Below, one piece after another: positions 1 through 7,011 of a stretch of 7,011 bases of DNA (positions are counted from its first letter, which is position 1; each line of letters starts with the position of its first letter). The DNA comes from a virus (Duplodnaviria; Heunggongvirae; Uroviricota; Caudoviricetes), in the IMG/VR virus record IMGVR_UViG_2648501165_000013, positions 1 to 7,011 of that record. One strand, written 5' to 3'. A program made the position numbers and the translations under genes. Below the pieces are notes generated by a model. That model was not told where the DNA came from and did not search any database. It saw only the letters and a list, made by a program, of their open reading frames with translations.

Positions 1-1236
1 CTACGATAGCCGCGCATTCAACATGGCTACCTGTTCGTCGTTCATATCATCAATCCACATACCGTAAATTTCATACACCATCTGCGCAGTTTCATGCCCC
101 ATCTGGCTGGCTATAAATGCCGGGTTCGCTCCTGCCGTCAACAGCCAGCAGGCAAAAGTATGCCGCGTATGGTACGGATTACGGCGGCGAATACCAGCAC
201 GTTTTACTGCTGCATTCCACCTTGCCCCCAAACTGCTTACCGAGTAATAAGGTTTCTGTTTTCCGTTACACACCCTGGGCATGAAAACAAAATGCAGTTT
301 TTGCTTTTCGGTTCTGCCGTACTCCCGATGATAAAAGGTGATTTCGCTTTTGCGATGATGCCCGGTCAGTTTGTATTGCTCCTTCAGTGCTTCAAGAGCA
401 GGATGCAGTAATGTTACTGTCCGGATCCCGGCATTTGTTTTTGGGGGACCGAACATATCCAGTATCGTCAGGTTTCTTCTGACATTCACAGTTCCCTTCT
501 CGAAATCCACATCCTCCCACGCCAGAGCTGCCAGTTCCCCGTGACGAAGCCCGGAGTAAACGGCAAATTTCCACAAGTTTTGGCTCTGTCCTTTTTCACT
601 TTCCATTAATGCATTGAATTCTGTTTTAGATAACGGGTCAGGCTTTATTCTGTTTCGCTGTAATTTTTTTACTCCTTCAAATGGTTTGGTTGATATAAAT
701 CCCGACTGATACGCAAAACGTAACAGCGAACAGAGCAGGGCGATATAGTTATCAACTGTGCGCACGGTTCTTCCTTTTTTGTTGGATCTTGGATTATCCA
801 GGTAAAGCGTTTCTCCATGCAGCAGTTCATTCCGGTAGTTTAAGATATCGCTATAACGAATATATGATATCGGGGTACTTTCACAAATTATTATTCTGAG
901 TGTTTTTAATTGTGATTTCGTTTTCTTCATTGTGTTTGTTGTTAACTCTGTCTCTTTAATTTTTGTCCAGATATCACAAAGCTCCCCGAACGTTTTTATG
1001 ACTCTCGTTGTCACCATTTTTGCCCCAGTGCTGGACTGGGGAAAACGTCTTAAATACTCAAATTCACCGGAGTTTATTTCATGAACTATCAGCGCTCTTA
1101 AATTTCCGGCCTTTTTAATATTACTGTTTGTAATCTCCCAGCCTTTTAATGTTTCCCGACATCGTTTTCCTCGAAACATGAACCAGATGCGAATGTTTCT
1201 ACCTCTAATCTCGACACCTGTTGGTAATTTAGACAT
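1..1236 (-). CDS. intR: Tyrosine-type site-specific integrase, Rac prophage IntR-like (411 aa)
   Basis: Complete minus-strand ORF (ATG at 1236-1234, TAG at 3-1). Translation starts MSKLPTGVEIRGRNIRIWF and has C-terminal tyrosine-recombinase signatures (GLRHGEL, HTRHTFA, GHETAQMVYEIY with a candidate catalytic Tyr). Matches my recollection of E. coli K-12 Rac IntR. Its start lies 1 nt past the xisR stop, suggesting translational coupling. Confidence 0.92.
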   Translation of the reverse strand: MSKLPTGVEIRGRNIRIWFMFRGKRCRETLKGWEITNSNIKKAGNLRALIVHEINSGEFEYLRRFPQSSTGAKMVTTRVIKTFGELCDIWTKIKETELTTNTMKKTKSQLKTLRIIICESTPISYIRYSDILNYRNELLHGETLYLDNPRSNKKGRTVRTVDNYIALLCSLLRFAYQSGFISTKPFEGVKKLQRNRIKPDPLSKTEFNALMESEKGQSQNLWKFAVYSGLRHGELAALAWEDVDFEKGTVNVRRNLTILDMFGPPKTNAGIRTVTLLHPALEALKEQYKLTGHHRKSEITFYHREYGRTEKQKLHFVFMPRVCNGKQKPYYSVSSLGARWNAAVKRAGIRRRNPYHTRHTFACWLLTAGANPAFIASQMGHETAQMVYEIYGMWIDDMNDEQVAMLNARLS

Positions 1237-1237
1237 A

Positions 1238-1453
1238 TCATGAGTCTTTGATAAACTGATTTATCTTTGGATAGTTGTACCAGATAATCCCTCGTTTGCT
1301 GTCTGGCTTACCTAAAGGAGATACTCGTTTGAAGTGGAAGCCCTCCACCCAACAGTTCTGGCGGTATGCTTCAATTTGTCTGGCCCCCAGACCAGTGCGA
1401 AGCATCAGGCCGTATTCAACCATCCACTCTTCATTAAAGATTACTTGTGCCAT
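1238..1453 (-). CDS. xisR: Excisionase-like protein, XisR/YdaQ (71 aa)
   Basis: Minus-strand ORF translating [71 protein letters not shown], ending TGA at 1240-1238. ATG at 1453-1451 is preceded by GAGGTGA about 5 nt upstream. The ORF-track version (to 1477) starts at a TTG with no better ribosome-binding site, so the ATG is preferred. Position directly upstream of intR fits an excisionase. Confidence 0.8.
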
Positions 1454-1467
1454 CGCATCACCTCTGG

Positions 1468-1500
1468 CAGGCGCCAATGTTAGACTGAAATTGACGCCTG
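1468..1500. promoter_or_regulatory. Imperfect inverted repeat (11-bp arms, 11-bp spacer) in the xisR-intR upstream region
   Basis: caggcgccaat (1468-1478) and attgacgcctg (1490-1500) are reverse complements with one mismatch. The repeat sits 15-47 nt upstream of the xisR start, in the only sizeable intergenic gap (1454-1552). No T-run follows on either strand, so an operator is more likely than a terminator. Confidence 0.25.
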
Positions 1501-1552
1501 ATGTTGATTATTAATAATCAGCTATGAAGTTTTAATTTGAATACAATGCAAT

Positions 1553-1712
1553 TCACGAGGACTGAAGTTTCTCGCAATTAAAATTTATCAGTTTTACTTT
1601 CTGCTCTCTGGAAACGCCTGCTTCTTTTTTACCTGAGAGCATTTTTTCGCATTCTGATTTCGTTAGTTTAGATTTTGAATATCTTGTCCAGTTAGTAGGA
1701 GTGCCACCTTCC
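1553..1712 (-). CDS. Small hypothetical protein at the position of Rac ydaC; 5' end lost in the N run
   Basis: Minus-strand frame open from the N run down to TGA at 1555-1553, translating ...EGGTPTNWTRYSKSKLTKSECEKMLSGKKEAGVSREQKVKLINFNCEKLQSS. It lies between ralR and xisR as ydaC does in K-12 Rac. The start codon cannot be located because 1713-1722 is N. I do not recognise the protein sequence itself. Confidence 0.5.
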
Positions 1713-1722
1713 NNNNNNNNNN
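1713..1722. other. Run of 10 N (gap or masked bases)
   Basis: Ten consecutive n characters; separates the ydaC-position ORF from the ralR stop. Confidence 1.
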
Positions 1723-1735
1723 TGTAGCGGTAATT

Positions 1736-1942
1736 TTATACATGAACGCCTCCATTAATATTTTCAGTGGTTCGTTTATCCCATCTTTCGAGCGCTTCTT
1801 TTTCACTTCCACCATAGCCAGTTCGGGATTCGCATCCGTTGCATTTTGCCCGGTAATATCATGAAATGTCTTTCACCGTTACTGATGGACAACCACAAAA
1901 CGGACATGGTTTAACATCGTCATATCTCAAAGTTTTTGTCAT
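1736..1942 (-). pseudogene. ralR: ralR (Lar-family restriction-alleviation protein / RalR DNase toxin) interrupted by an in-frame TGA at codon 28
   Basis: Minus-strand frame from ATG 1942-1940 reads MTKTLRYDDVKPCPFCGCPSVTVKDIS, then TGA (1861-1859), then continues in the same frame as YYRAKCNGCESRTGYGGSEKEALERWDKRTTENINGGVHV to TAA at 1738-1736. Cys pairs on both sides of the stop (CPFCGC and CNGC) indicate one ancestral 68-codon gene. An alternative in-frame ATG at 1969-1967 has a better ribosome-binding site. Confidence 0.7.
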
Positions 1943-1986
1943 AAAAACTATCTCACGTTGGCGGTGCATTACACCGCCTGGCTGAA

Positions 1987-2796
1987 TTATTCTTCTGAAT
2001 TATCGATTACACTGTATTCCCCGGTTAATACAGAGGAGTCTGCCGGATCGATTGTCAGTGGTTCCTTTTCATCCATTGATACTGCACGCTGGATTTCAAT
2101 TGAGACAGGCAGGTATTTAAACAGGCGACGAATAGCCGTTTTTTTTGCCATTTCTTCCCAGTGAGTTACCCACGGCCCGTTATTACCTGCCTTACTCTGG
2201 CTGCGCACCAGTTCAATCTGTTTGCGCGTCATAACTTCAAACTGAGTCCCTCCGTCTTTCAGTCTTGCGACAGCATAGACGTGGGTCACTGGTGCATCTT
2301 CGTTTTCTCCCGGGCGGTGTATTAACTTTTCATCAAGGCCAAATTCGAAGCTAAACTCGTCACCTTCACGGACAACACGGGCTGACAGGCTGGCGATTTG
2401 ACCAGAACGGCGAGCCAGATCAATCATGCCGCGATAGCCAATGATTAGCTGAACGTTCTTTTTACCGCTCTTTTCGTTTTTATTACCAAAAGGCAGTAAA
2501 TATGCGTGGCCAAGGGCGCTACCTGGCTCAAGGCCGAGCTGTGAACACTGTACGATTGCACTGACAAAACTCATAGTGTCACAGTTTCCTAACGCTGGAA
2601 CGTTACGAATTTCTGTGGTGGCGATACGGATCATACGTTCAGCCGTCATATGGCGTGGAAGAGCTGCTGCCAGTTGCTCTTTCATTGATGGCTGGTTAAT
2701 AAAACTAATCACGTCGTTATTTTTAACTGCTGCTGGTGCACGGTTTCCCTGAGTTTTTTGCAGATCGGCTTTTGCGATTGGTGGTTGCTTAGTCAT
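1987..2796 (-). CDS. recT: RecT single-strand annealing protein (269 aa)
   Basis: Minus-strand ORF translating [50 protein letters not shown]...VIDNSEE, matching my recollection of K-12 RecT. ATG at 2796-2794 is preceded by AGGA. The start overlaps the recE stop (ATGACTAA); the ORF-track N-terminal extension to 2853 is recE 3' sequence in another frame. Confidence 0.95.
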
Positions 2797-3798
2797 TTGC
2801 ATATTCCTTAGCCCAGCGGGGCAGTGATAACGTCTTAATAGCTGGCCATTCATCGGTATTGAGGCAGTCAGCCAGGGTCCTCAGATTGCGGTGATATTCC
2901 TGCTGGCCTGCCAGTTTTGCTTCTTCGCCCATCATGAAAATCTCAATCGGGTAACGTCCGCATTCAACAGTTGTGCTGGCAACCAGAAAAACGAAAGTTG
3001 GCAGCACACCAAACTGTGCTTCATAACCGTCACTGTAGAATGCATCCTGAACGTGATAGCGGTAGTCGTAATAAGCCGTTTTGAATCGTTGAATATCCGC
3101 TGTGGTTTTCACGTCCATGATCCAGTGAAATTCAGGAATAATTTTGTCCGGACGGCACCGACACAAAATTCCTGTTTCCGGATCTTCCCAGTAAATTGAT
3201 GATTCAGCGTGTCCGGCGCTTTCCACAAGCCATTGACCCAGCGGCAAAGCCATAACGCTCTGATACATGAGTTCAATTTTCCGGCCTTCTTCGGCAGTGA
3301 TAACCGTTTTTCCTGTGCTTGCGCATTCCATCAGAAACGCTTTCTCTTCTTCTTTTCCGGCGTTTGTACGGCGGTTAAATTCAGGTGCTACGATAAAGCG
3401 GTTACTGAATTCTTCCGGTTCAAGTACACGGCAGTGGAAAGCGGTTCCTAAATCGAGCGTTTTTGTCTTTGTGGTGTCCACAGGGGCATTTTTACGCCAC
3501 AAATACAGCGCCGGAGTATCAGCAATGTCGTCGAGCTGAGACTTACTGACACCGGGACCCGCGTGGTAATTCTCATTCGAAATTCCGTAATAAATACCAG
3601 GCTCTATGTCTCCTGCGATTACGGGATCTGCGACTTCGCCAGTTTCATCACTGCAATCGCGATGCAGATCGCTGCCAGCATTCTCATTGTGCGGATGTTC
3701 AGGGCCTTCCATTTCCTCCGGCTCTTTTTCCTGAGATTCATCCAGATTTTCTTCATTAAAGGTTTCCTGATACGTTGCGTCGCCCATCACCGCACCAC
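2789..3798 (-). CDS. recE: recE 3' portion: exonuclease VIII C-terminal nuclease domain (about 336 codons); 5' side ends at an N run
   Basis: Minus-strand frame reads [60 protein letters not shown]...[24 protein letters not shown]...[11 protein letters not shown], ending TAA at 2791-2789. The PDK...IMDVK pattern fits a PD-(D/E)XK nuclease and the C-terminal sequence matches my recollection of K-12 RecE. Upstream of 3799 the ORF-track frame is not RecE. Confidence 0.9.
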
Positions 3799-3808
3799 NN
3801 NNNNNNNN
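3799..3808. other. Run of 10 N (gap or masked bases)
   Basis: Ten n characters exactly at the switch from recE sequence to bet sequence. Confidence 1.
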
Positions 3809-3950
3809 GCAGTGCGATAAACTGCGCATCGCTGGCATTGCCTTTAAATGCCGTCTGGCGAAGAGTGGCGATCAGTTCCTGCGGGTCGACAGTATCCATG
3901 CCGACACGTTCAGCCAGCTTCCCGGCCAGTGTTGCAAGTGCTGTACTCAT
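3809..3950 (-). pseudogene. bet: 5' fragment of bet (lambda Red-beta family annealing protein), first 47 codons only
   Basis: ATG at 3950-3948 with GAGGT about 9 nt upstream. Translation MSTALATLAGKLAERVGMDTVDPQELIATLRQTAFKGNASDAQFIAL matches the lambda Bet N-terminus as I recall it. The frame runs into the N run and then continues out of frame over recE sequence ([13 protein letters not shown], stop at 3758-3756). Confidence 0.8.
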
Positions 3951-3955
3951 TTGTT

Positions 3956-4255
3956 TTATACCTCTGAATCAATATCAACCTGGTGGTGAGCAATGGTTTC
4001 AACCATGTACCGGATGTGTTCTGCCATGCGTTCCTGAAATTCAACATCGTCATCAAATGCGCGACTGATTGCCTGTTTGCTGGCACCGTGGCGTTGCAAA
4101 TGGTCGATGCAGAGCGATTCAAACAGGTGCTGAGGCAGACCTTTTTCCAGGTCGTCCGCCAGTTCCGTTTCTTTTTCTTCGCGAACGATCTTCTGGTAGT
4201 GGCGTGACCATGCCAGCTCTTCAATGCGATCAAAAATCGGGCATGTGCTCATCAT
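3956..4255 (-). CDS. gam: Gam-like RecBCD inhibitor, short GamS-type form (99 aa)
   Basis: Minus-strand ORF translating [99 protein letters not shown]. The C-terminal 75 residues are near-identical to lambda Gam as I recall it; the N-terminus is divergent. A stop lies two codons upstream in frame, and the gene ends 5 nt before the bet ATG, the same gam-then-bet order as lambda. Confidence 0.85.
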
Positions 4256-4373
4256 CTGTTACCCCAAAATTTTCAAGTTTGTTTGCGATCATCATTGCAA
4301 TACCCGGAATTAATGGCGCTGAGGCTATACCTGCAGGATTCGCACATAAACCGTAAACCGCCGCAATCACCAC
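4230..4373 (-). CDS. Hypothetical small hydrophobic protein (47 aa if GTG start) overlapping the gam start; may instead be the C-terminal tail of a longer recE-like ORF
   Basis: Frame reads [47 protein letters not shown] to TGA at 4232-4230. It has a transmembrane-like hydrophobic core and overlaps gam by 26 nt, the position kil occupies in lambda. There is no in-frame ATG with a ribosome-binding site; the frame is continuous upstream with the recE-like RDCSDETGE codons. Confidence 0.3.
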
Positions 4374-4444
4374 TTGTCTTTTCCAGTCGAGTTTTTCTAA
4401 TGATGAAGCTGTTGCTTCGCCAGTTTCATCACTGCAATCGCGAT

Positions 4445-4454
4445 NNNNNNNNNN
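4445..4454. other. Run of 10 N (gap or masked bases)
   Basis: Ten n characters inside the recE-like acidic linker, between VRENE and RDCSDETGE. Confidence 1.
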
Positions 4455-4556
4455 CTCATTTTCCCGAACTTCAACCTGATTCTCGTCATCGAATGTTTCC
4501 TGATATGTTGCGTCGCCCATCACCGCACCACAGTCAGGGCAGTTATCCCCGCCAGA

Positions 4557-4719
4557 CTGACCGCAGGCGGTGCAAACTTTCTCCGTTTCCTGTTGTTGCA
4601 CTACTGGCTCAGGCTGTTTCGTTTCTGGCTCGTTTTGTTGCGTATTTTGGTCGTTCTGTTCCGTTTCTGGCTGATTCTGGTATATAGAGTCGCGGGTCTG
4701 GATCCCCTTAACCCATTTC
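4557..4719. repeat. Diverged direct repeat, copy 2 of a ~160-bp recE module ([10 protein letters not shown]...CTACGQ)
   Basis: Aligns to 4731-4890 with a 3-bp length difference and roughly 75% amino-acid identity ([54 protein letters not shown] versus [53 protein letters not shown]). Confidence 0.8.
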
Positions 4720-4729
4720 NNNNNNNNNN
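4720..4729. other. Run of 10 N (gap or masked bases)
   Basis: Ten n characters exactly between the two copies of the ~160-bp module. Confidence 1.
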
Positions 4730-4730
4730 T

Positions 4731-4890
4731 CTGACCGCAGGCATTGCAGACTATTTCCGGTTTCTGTTGCACTACTGGTTCAGGTTGTTTCACATCCGGG
4801 CTGGTTTTTACAGTTTCTGGCGTGTTTTGTTCCGTTTCTGGCTGGTTCTGGTACACAGAGTCGCGAGTCTGGATCCCCTTTACCCATTTC
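4731..4890. repeat. Diverged direct repeat, copy 1 of the ~160-bp recE module ([10 protein letters not shown]...CNACGQ)
   Basis: See its partner at 4557-4719. Confidence 0.8.
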
Positions 4891-4914
4891 GGATCGTTCG
4901 GGTCGCTAATCCCT

Positions 4915-5706
4915 TCAACGAACTCACCACGCGAAGCAGCCAGTAATTTGTCTGCATCGACAGGATTTTTGGGCGGAATGTTTTTCCGGGCTTCATGGAG
5001 TTCTGCCCGCAGTTTCTGATATTTTTCATCAACAGAATTTACCTGTGACTGAGCATCCAGCGGCTGCGTGTCCTGATGATGTTCAGTTGCATCCGGTTCC
5101 ACTGTTTCAGCCGTTGCCTGTTCATCTGCCATTGCGCAAGATGGTTGCAGTTTTTCTTCATCATCCTGTTTTTCTTCTTCTGTTACACGCTGCGGCATCG
5201 GGGCAGAGGAACGACCGCAGGCAATATCCACGATTTCTGGATCAGGGTTGGCATGATCAGTTTCAGTCAGTACTTTGTTCAGATATTCAGTGACGTGCGC
5301 GGGGATGACCTCGATCCCAATTGGTGCTTCTTTCACGGACGCAACCACGATGGCGCGGGAATAATCCAGCCCGCCAGGCATGGTGATGAATTTGTCGCGG
5401 AAAACAGAAAAGGGTGGTTTATTTTCAGCGATAATTTCCTCGACACGTTTAGCGTGTGCCGGATGAAGGTTATAAATGTCCACGTCCATTGAACGAGCCA
5501 GTACGCCAGTGGCTACGTCGCGCGCCAGTGACGTCAGATCGTGAACGAAACCTTCGCCGCGATCGGTGAGGTTCCCGCCGCCAGCATTAGCGCCGGAAGC
5601 CGTGCGCGTGATGCGTGAAACACGATTTCCTTTTCGCCATTCTTTTGTCAGAAGACCGCGATCAATGTGTTCGGTATCCAGCCAGGCTGAAATGAAATTC
5701 TTAAAT
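4915..5706. repeat. Direct repeat copy A (~792 bp) of recE coding sequence
   Basis: Aligns base for base at an offset of 802 with 5717-6508. About 475 bp (4936-5410) is essentially identical (one difference seen), the next ~300 bp is about 93% identical, and 4915-4935 differs at every third position (wobble sites). The plus-strand ORF-track entries 5045..5293 and 5847..6095 have identical translations. Confidence 0.95.
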
Positions 5707-7011
5707 NNNNNNNNNNTCAACAAATTCTCCGCGAGAGGCAGCCAGTAATTTGTCTGTATCGACAGGATTTTTGGGCGGAATGTTTTTCCGGGCTTCATGG
5801 AGTTCTGCCCGCAGTTTCTGATATTTTTCATCAACAGAATTTACCTGTGACTGAGCATCCAGCGGCTGCGTGTCCTGATGATGTTCAGTTGCATCCGGTT
5901 CCACTGTTTCAGCCGTTGCCTGTTCATCTGCCATTGCGCAAGATGGTTGCAGTTTTTCTTCATCATCCTGTTTTTCTTCTTCTGTTACACGCTGCGGCAT
6001 CGGGGCAGAGGAACGACCGCAGGCAATATCCACGATTTCTGGATCAGGGTTGGCATGATCAGTTTCAGTCAGTACTTTGTTCAGATATTCAGTGACGTGC
6101 GCGGGGATGACCTCGATCCCAATTGGTGCTTCTTTCACGGACGCAACCACGATGGCGCGGGAATAATCCAGCCCGCCAGGCATGGTGATGAATTTGTCGC
6201 GGAAAACAGAAAAGGGCGGTTTATTTTCAGCGATAATTTCCTCAATGCGTTTAGCGTGTGCCGGATGAAGGTTATAGATGTCCACGTCCATTGAACGGGC
6301 CAGAATGCCAGTGGCTACGTCGCGGGCCAGCGACGCCTGATCATGAACGAAACCTTCGCCGCGATCGGTAAGGTTCCCGCCGCCTGCATTAGCACCGGAA
6401 TCTGTGCGAGTGATGCGTGAAACACGATTCCCTTTTCGCCATTCTTTTGTTAGAAGACCGCGATCAATGTGTTCGGTGTCCAGCCAGGCTGAAATGAAAT
6501 TCTTAAATTCATAGGGCTGATGTTTTTTCGTGATAGAGAAAACTGCCTTAATTGCATCAGTCAGGCGGAGCAGGGCGGCATTATCCAGAGTTGTCGGTTC
6601 TGCCATGCCGCGTATGGCCAACAGCAGATTCTGGACATAGCTGTTTTCCTGATCCATCTCAAGAGCAGTAATGTGTTTGCGTTGTTCACGGGTGGCATGA
6701 TGCAGGTATTTCCGATCCCCGGCCGCATACGTAAAAATGTGCAGAAGACGCTGTGTGAACCGCAAAGTGGCTACAGAGACTTCGCAATCCTGGCAATCCC
6801 CGTGGGCGTCTGCCTGCGCGTTTTCTTCCAGGCCTCCCGCCAGTTCTTTGGTTTCCTGAGCATTATCCTGGTGGTGAACGTCGTCTGGCGCTGCTCCCGG
6901 TTTTAGTTCCCAGGTCATGGAGTCTTTGCTGAGTTGATAGCGGTCACTCCAGGTAAAATCGATCTCACCTTCAGGGGGCAGGTCATTAACGACAGGAAAA
7001 TTCGTGGCAAC
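5701..7011 (-). CDS. recE: recE 5' portion (RecE N-terminal, non-nuclease region); start lies beyond the window end; frame stops at 5703-5701 just past the N run
   Basis: Minus-strand frame open from the window edge reads [43 protein letters not shown]...[42 protein letters not shown]...[11 protein letters not shown]. The conserved blocks match my recollection of K-12 RecE residues from about 60 onward; the stretch between them is a divergent allele. The frame is +1 relative to copy A, so it terminates right after the junction. Confidence 0.8.
5707..5716. other. Run of 10 N (gap or masked bases)
   Basis: Ten n characters exactly at the junction of the two ~792-bp copies. Confidence 1.
5717..6508. 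repeat. Direct repeat copy B (~792 bp) of recE coding sequence
   Basis: See copy A at 4915-5706. Confidence 0.95.

Follow-up and report, generated by a model that had tools for sequence, protein, structure and literature searches.

Two interleaved prophages as the very probable source of an apparent Red/RecET hybrid in a draft Escherichia coli scaffold

Contig pieces and the two prophages they very probably come from

The 7,011-base stretch of DNA analysed here (the window; positions 1 to 7,011 of the IMG/VR virus record IMGVR_UViG_2648501165_000013) places a homolog of the phage λ gene gam and the start of bet, both from the λ Red recombination module, between sequences of recE, which belongs to the RecET module of the Rac prophage. 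The initial annotation had offered two readings of this order, a contiguous Red/RecET hybrid or the trace of another prophage of this genome, one that carries a Red module. Our analysis makes it very probable that the window is a draft scaffold in which contigs of two paralogous prophage loci were merged linearly with spacers of 10 N. Pieces 1, 2 and 5, with the shared end of piece 6, would then come from a Rac prophage (locus A), and pieces 3, 4 and 6 from a second Rac-like prophage that carries Red genes (locus B).

Five runs of exactly 10 N (1713-1722, 3799-3808, 4445-4454, 4720-4729 and 5707-5716) split the window into six pieces of 1712, 2076, 636, 265, 977 and 1295 bases. The block with gam and bet, 3799-4454, consists of piece 3 (3809-4444) and both its spacers, and because it is bounded by N runs at 3799-3808 and 4445-4454, adjacency over these runs is not observed sequence. 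The transition from bet to recE is spacer only (3799-3808). The junction from recE to gam is real sequence, with the codons for RDCSDETGE and gam on one uninterrupted piece (3809-4444). The ends of the pieces also repeat one another: piece 3 closes with 30 bases (4415-4444) that stand unchanged at 3634-3663 in piece 2, piece 5 with 30 bases (5677-5706) that stand unchanged at 6479-6508 in piece 6, and piece 2 with 25 bases (3774-3798) that recur at 4507-4531 in piece 4. Exact end overlaps of 30 nucleotides (nt) would be the signature of k-1 overlaps in a de Bruijn assembly, with k = 31 as the value that the overlap length points to.

The same parts of recE are present in the window as diverged alleles, with 84% identity between pieces 2 and 4, 79% between pieces 4 and 5, and 96.3% between pieces 5 and 6 over 792 bases. 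Such diverged duplicate segments cannot belong to one gene but are compatible with two paralogous genes. Two of the spacers are accordingly false adjacencies: that at 4720-4729 joins a locus B contig to a locus A contig, pieces 4 and 5 covering the same recE register, and that at 5707-5716 joins pieces 5 and 6, which cover the same 792 nt.

The pieces were compared with 5426 finished E. coli genomes and with phages. The reference loci are called L001 (NZ_CP020106, strain 13E0780, a prophage adjacent to yebY), L002 (NZ_CP144930, a Rac prophage integrated at ttcA), L003 (the type found in Shiga toxin [Stx] phages), L005 (adjacent to yebY, IGC_RcoliRes_1.1), L006 and L007 (both at ynfG) and L008 (at ttcA, IGC_EcoliInv_1.1). 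Pieces 1 and 2 are 100% identical to L002, in which the gene order is intR, xisR, DUF1187, ralR, recT and an intact recE of 890 amino acids (aa). Piece 1 ends at L002 3212 and piece 2 begins at L002 3221, and the spacer at 1713-1722 stands for the 8 reference bases between them, within the DUF1187/ralR overlap. In the L002 recE, the 24 bases that follow piece 2 (L002 5297-5320; AGTCAGGGCAGTTATCCCCGCCAG) occur verbatim in the window at 4532-4555, directly past the 25-nt overlap, and therefore both recE alleles share an exact repeat of 49 nt. Piece 2 stops within this repeat. Piece 5 begins on L002 after a gap of 24 bases, just where the two alleles come to differ. Because its following 24 reference bases stand in piece 4, piece 2 continues into recE and not into bet, and the spacer at 3799-3808 marks no real bet/recE junction.

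Locus A can be reconstructed as piece 1, 8 nt, piece 2, 24 nt, piece 5 and window positions 6509-7011, 5300 bases in all. In this reconstruction, made from contig sorting and not from reads, the recE frame is open over 837 aa to the edge of the window, where it ends in ...KEYAND. The best matches to the whole window take in 90% of the query, leaving out only piece 3 and the Ns, and collapse onto a Rac segment of 5300 nt. Judged by these matches, locus A is an ordinary Rac prophage with a standard RecET module and a full-length recE that includes the nuclease domain.

Pieces 3 and 4 belong elsewhere, with 99.7% and 100% identity, respectively, to the L001 prophage. There the gene order is integrase, excisionase, DUF1187, ralR, λ-type exo, bet, gam, a 'RecE family exodeoxyribonuclease' without the C-terminus, a hypothetical gene, ydaE and kilR. 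On L001, the last base of piece 3 is 7636 and the first of piece 4 is 7695, and the spacer at 4445-4454 stands for the 58 bases between them; piece 6 follows piece 4 after a gap of 24 bases. Locus B, rebuilt from piece 3, 58 nt, piece 4, 24 nt and piece 6, has an open frame of 618 aa that ends in ...HMPDF.

All genes of the window discussed here lie on its minus strand. The bet sequence in the window (3809-3950) comprises 47 codons and one base and matches positions 1-50 of PHROG 252 (Bet-like). Its product is 93.6% identical to residues 1-47 of λ Bet and 100% identical to the same residues of the full-length Bet of L001, a protein of 261 aa that is 95% identical to λ Bet and matches the Pfam RecT profile (E=7e-33). 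The 47 codons end at a contig edge, and what looked like a truncated bet is very probably a gene cut there by the assembly, not a truncated gene. The gam gene (3956-4255) encodes a RecBCD inhibitor of the λ Gam family (Pfam PF06064, E=8e-57, 95 of the 98 profile positions; PHROG 259), 81.6% identical to residues 41-138 of λ Gam, and a Gam of 98 aa is likewise annotated in L001, L005 and L008. The Exo of L001 is 95% identical to λ Exo (Pfam YqaJ, E=1e-30), and exo is present in every inspected reference locus of this type. By family membership, locus B would be a standard λ-type Red module. Proteins of these three families inhibit RecBCD (Gam), resect 5' strands (Exo) and anneal single strands (Bet). 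Locus B would act in the same way, Gam blocking RecBCD, Exo resecting 5' ends and Bet annealing the strands, with the nuclease-less RecE-like protein encoded upstream as a conserved accessory protein.

The following course of assembly would produce the window. The recE 5' sequence is nearly identical in the two loci, and a short-k-mer assembler would have broken at each shared stretch and dropped the tiny bubble contigs. The gaps of 58, 24 and 8 bases may reflect closely spaced single-nucleotide polymorphisms between the alleles, which would leave bubble contigs too short to keep. The scaffolder, whether by paired-end scaffolding or by reference-guided ordering, would then have interleaved two colinear paralogous paths; the order 2-3-4-5-6 does keep the true order and orientation of both. 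The contig with gam would stop at bet codon 47 only through a break of the assembler, and the remainder of bet and exo should sit on another contig of the same assembly.

Some points weigh against this explanation. The sorting of the pieces uses reference genomes and overlap logic, not the reads, coverage or assembly graph of the strain, and the gap-filling bases (58, 24 and 8 nt) were taken from reference genomes. None of the finished genomes is 100% identical to piece 3 (best 99.7%) or to piece 5 (best 97.2%), and the strain itself therefore lies outside the finished set. Nor did that set contain both loci together in one chromosome identical to that of the strain. Positions 5717-6478 were placed in locus B solely by adjacency, being 98.7% identical to L002 and 98.6% identical to L001, and the integration site of locus B is not visible within the window.

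What the initial annotation had seen in the sequence is all borne out and owes nothing to chance: the Gam homolog at 3956-4255, the first 47 codons of bet at 3809-3950, and recE sequence on either side of the block (RDCSDETGE at 4415-4444 and RecE peptide just below 3798). The contiguous hybrid that it had built from them is refuted, as the bet/recE and recE/recE junctions are 10-N spacers and the flanks are duplicate alleles. The 3809-4444 segment is a separate contig, 99.7% identical to loci with intact bet and exo downstream, and in the sorted pieces the Rac recE is uninterrupted. The other reading, that the genome holds a further prophage carrying Red genes, is supported by the 99.7% and 100% matches of pieces 3 and 4 to such a prophage. 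Taken as a whole, that interpretation stands in part: it keeps the second prophage with Red and loses the hybrid module.

The remaining features of locus A are those of Rac. The integrase gene intR occupies 1-1236, an open reading frame (ORF) of 411 aa within piece 1, whose 100% match in NZ_CP144930 is annotated intR beside ttcA. The excisionase gene xisR lies at 1238-1453, with coordinates carried over from L002 2738-2953 through the same 100% match. The toxin gene ralR (1736-1930) contains an internal TGA stop (translation ...TVKDIS*YYRAKCNG...), and the same stop is annotated in the 100% identical L002 reference; unlike this copy, ralR is intact in the prophages of the yebY and KingRac types. 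The contig break at 1713-1722 fits a second DUF1187-ralR copy, about 92% identical, elsewhere in the genome, and in the yebY-type prophage such a copy adjoins exo. The annealase gene recT (1987-2796; Pfam RecT PF03837 at 1990-2796, E=1e-56), annotated as such in L002, is downstream of recE, and the two genes overlap. At the end of piece 2 (2789-3798) is the 3' third of recE, with the PDDEXK nuclease domain (Pfam DUF3799 at 2792-3796, E=2e-28) and 100% identity to the L002 gene.

The middle of the locus A recE (4730-5706, piece 5) carries the Rac-type variant stretch, and its best matches, at 97.2%, all lie within intact recE genes. Pieces 1 and 2 match at 100%, and this allele is probably mosaic, or a product of gene conversion, between the two co-resident recE-like genes. 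The recE/RecE-like 5' region at 6479-7011, the start of which is repeated at 5677-5706, is probably a collapsed repeat common to both loci. In one other genome, NZ_CP038374 (E. coli O157:H7 F3113), the Rac recE appears to be interrupted by IS1203, an insertion sequence (IS) of the IS3 family; the annotation there has one 'RecE family' gene and, apart from it, a PD-(D/E)XK nuclease-like protein. This would be a real split of recE, mediated by the IS and unrelated to the window.

Occurrence of the gam/bet piece and its other possible origins

At a coverage of at least 80%, the 636-base piece is contiguous in 96 of the 5426 finished genomes and is always annotated RecE family, Gam and Bet. A search with 3809-4444, proposed by the initial annotation, thus did find the same fragment elsewhere; the whole order of the window was found in none of the 5426 finished genomes. 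We inspected five chromosomal loci, two beside yebY (L001 and L005), two at ynfG (L006 and L007) and one at ttcA (L008), and the arrangement accordingly has three integration sites. L008 carries the intR and xisR of Rac itself alongside the Red module. The assumption that prophages of the Rac type carry no Red genes does not hold, as Rac-like prophages with ralR-exo-bet-gam and a RecE-like gene are found beside yebY and at ttcA. L008 comes from the K-12-derived 'invader' strain of the Gulbenkian mouse-gut experiments, in which KingRac, an active Rac-like phage that forms particles, is reported to have taken the place of Rac at ttcA (PMC6731689). To judge by the name of the strain, its G2 mouse host and the integration at ttcA, L008 appears to be KingRac.

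Four of the five inspected chromosomal loci have an intact RecE-like gene of 657-684 aa, L001 being frameshifted, and the gene is intact too in the two phages inspected. In the Stx phages 75/02 Stx (a Shigella phage), POCJ13, PhiR5_2 and phiSTEC1589-Stx1c, a gene of 682-690 aa ends at the start of gam and is followed by bet and exo. A gam/bet module with a nuclease-less RecE-like gene thus already stands annotated in dozens of finished genomes, and inducible phages have it too.

The variety of these sites raises the possibility that the window is an assembly artefact whose second prophage is not of the yebY type, and is instead an Stx-like phage integrated at ynfG or a Rac-like element at another site. 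The same module does occur at ynfG, at ttcA and in Stx phages, and the window does not reach the integration site of locus B. We consider this rather unlikely. Identity of pieces 3 and 4 reaches 99.7% and 100% with the yebY prophage of 13E0780 and 99.4% and 98.9% with that of IGC_RcoliRes_1.1, but only 96% and 87% with the ynfG type and 83% and 76% with the Stx phages. In addition, ttcA is already taken by locus A in this genome, and the break of the contig within DUF1187/ralR is in keeping with another copy of DUF1187-ralR, such as the yebY type has.

That the window is truly contiguous, with the gam/bet fragment left inside a rearranged and partly duplicated recE as a scar of recombination between Red and RecET, is very improbable. 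The pieces do stand in this order in the window, and gam does share an uninterrupted piece with real recE-like sequence. All the other junctions, however, are 10-N spacers, and the same recE segments recur two or three times as diverged alleles. The order is absent from the finished genomes, where the best matches collapse onto 5300 nt that lack piece 3, and what is missing past piece 2 is 24 nt of recE. The initial annotation had proposed a recombination scar or a deliberate fusion, and neither is supported: the gam-adjacent gene is intact, under selection, about 660-690 aa long and also present in inducible Stx phages, and the Gam and Bet sequences, only 82% and 94% identical to those of λ, speak against a laboratory cassette.

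An engineered λ Red recombineering cassette or a contaminating plasmid as the source of the piece can be dismissed for practical purposes: laboratory E. coli commonly carry Red cassettes, but these have the λ sequence, from which Gam (81.6%) and residues 1-47 of Bet (93.6%) depart, and the piece runs on into a natural RecE-like gene and matches chromosomes of wild cattle, mouse and human isolates, 4030 of the 4044 places being chromosomal. Sequence identical to λ or to a vector was not seen.

Two interleaved prophages, the reading retained here, carry a caution for the use of draft genomes. In a draft E. coli assembly, contigs of paralogous prophages can become interleaved through runs of 10 N, which creates apparent chimeric and 'truncated' genes, and annotation or mining of such scaffolds would miscall a Red/RecET hybrid at this window. 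The biology underneath would be a Rac-like prophage in which a nuclease-less RecE-like gene precedes the Gam-Bet-Exo module.

The nuclease-less RecE-like gene beside gam

The RecE-like gene of locus B is spread over several pieces of the window. Its 3' end (4230-4414) encodes a conserved, moderately hydrophobic tail of 61 aa, and its TGA stop (4232-4230) overlaps the start of gam. Just upstream in the gene are the 30 nt common with Rac recE (4415-4444, the copy of 3634-3663), which encode RDCSDETGE, and homology between L001 and L002 begins exactly there (L001 7607). The middle of the gene, in the locus B allele (4455-4719), is 100% identical to L001 and only 82% identical to the Rac recE of L002. 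A further stretch of the second allele (5717-6478), placed in locus B by its adjacency to piece 4, begins 24 nt past the end of piece 4 on L001 and keeps the frame open. In L001 itself, the gene (within 7608-9438) has a single frameshift at about 8500, after ...TDHANP, and is annotated as a pseudogene.

Rac RecE combines an N-terminal Exonuc_VIII domain (PF06630) with a C-terminal PDDEXK domain (DUF3799, residues 639-874), and the sole solved RecE structure, PDB 3H4R, spans residues 629-890. The Exonuc_VIII profile matches window positions 5719-7011 (E=1e-30), including the 5' region at 6479-7011, as well as the proteins of L005, L008 and L006 and gp06 of phage 75/02 (E=2e-67 to 9e-13). A Pfam profile search gave no match to the DUF3799 nuclease domain in any gam-adjacent RecE-like protein, and the PDB contained no relative of these proteins or of the N-terminal region of RecE. 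The gam-adjacent proteins can be aligned to RecE as far as residue 609-620, where a conserved tail of about 50-60 aa takes over. They are 92% identical to Rac RecE in the yebY type, 67-69% in KingRac and one ynfG type, and 57% in the Stx phages, and the tail is kept in all of them.

The tail motif DWKRQ...MIAN.LENFG is present in the window and in all six intact homologs, and the 61-aa tail of the window is 63% identical to that of gp06 of Stx phage 75/02. Ratios of nonsynonymous to synonymous substitution (dN/dS; Nei-Gojobori method) are 0.22-0.48 for the whole gene and 0.05-0.14 for the tail. By these ratios and alignments, the nuclease-less RecE-like gene is maintained under purifying selection and is split from RecE at a domain boundary, and its junction with gam is no scar of a recent illegitimate event. 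The tail of about 50 aa (window 4233-4414; homologs in L003-L008) is the most conserved part of the protein. Searched alone as 70 aa, it matched no Pfam or PHROG family; it has no match in the PDB either, and its maximum Kyte-Doolittle score over 19 residues is 1.62, borderline for a transmembrane helix. The tail has no similarity to λ Kil or to a part of λ Gam, and both identities were ruled out.

The end of the RecE-like ORF overlaps the start of gam by 23-26 nt in the window (4230-4255), in the yebY type (L005 6422-6444), in KingRac and in one ynfG type (L006); in the type found in Stx phages the overlap is 4 nt, ATGA (L003 3537-3540). An ORF that ends within the start of gam suggests translational coupling of the two genes.

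Between L001 and L002, homology on one side covers DUF1187-ralR (91.7%) and on the other runs from the RDCSDETGE codons upstream through the recE 5' region, ydaE and kilR (98.2%). These homologous flanks may serve as substrates for swapping 'recT + recE nuclease part' against 'tail-gam-bet-exo' by homologous recombination. What retains interest once the hybrid is set aside is that the N-terminal region of RecE is kept under purifying selection as a separate gene beside Red. We put forward, tentatively, that the N-terminal approximately 600 aa of RecE are an autonomous phage protein with a tail of its own of about 50 aa, translationally coupled to gam and able to pair with either recombination system. 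If this is true, the Rac recE would be a gene fusion of this N-terminal protein with a nuclease domain, and the protein would stand alone upstream of Gam-Bet-Exo in KingRac-like prophages and some Stx phages. It would then be a general accessory factor, genetically testable in a Red background, with DNA-end handling in linear-linear recombination or counter-defence as candidate roles.

Comparison with known recombination modules

The closest relatives of locus B are the Red-bearing Rac-like prophages of 13E0780, IGC_RcoliRes_1.1 and IGC_EcoliInv_1.1. They share the series ralR, exo, bet, gam, nuclease-less RecE-like gene, hypothetical gene, ydaE and kilR, and have the same junction from RDCSDETGE to the tail and the same overlap with gam as the window. 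The window differs in showing only a 636-nt slice of this series together with recE-like pieces, and 13E0780 differs in that its RecE-like gene is frameshifted, whereas the reconstructed frame of the window is open. The Stx phages have an intact gene, annotated exonuclease VIII, that ends at the start of gam and is followed by bet and exo, and its product has the tail ...MIAN.LENFG. They are more distant, with about 83% DNA identity to the window piece, 57% protein identity to Rac RecE, another integrase and other neighbours, and DUF4222 in place of ralR/DUF1187.

A 2025 survey in Genome Res describes 'RecE-2' proteins in the early-left Rec modules of lambdoid phages as 'distantly related' relatives of RecE, without the nuclease domain and of unknown role (PMC12315714). 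This description fits the gene of locus B, which is probably of the same family.

λ Red itself comprises the same three families in the same order, exo-bet-gam. Upstream of gam, λ has kil and cIII, where the locus B type has the RecE-like gene of about 670 aa; the Gam of the locus B type is a short form of 98-99 aa, unlike that of λ. With regard to the RecET module of Rac (E. coli K-12 type), locus A is exactly this module. The RecE-like gene of locus B has RecE residues 1-609 in common with it, at up to 92% identity, and locus B differs in having neither the PDDEXK nuclease domain (RecE 629-890) nor recT.

λ reverse (λ rev) is a laboratory-selected recombinant, a λ phage that acquired recE-recT from Rac. 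It too joins a lambdoid phage and Rac by module exchange at the recombination genes, and a Rac-like phage with Red is its conceptual reciprocal. The two differ in age: the locus B module is old and diversified, with identity classes from 57% to 92%, and is not the product of a recent, one-off event.

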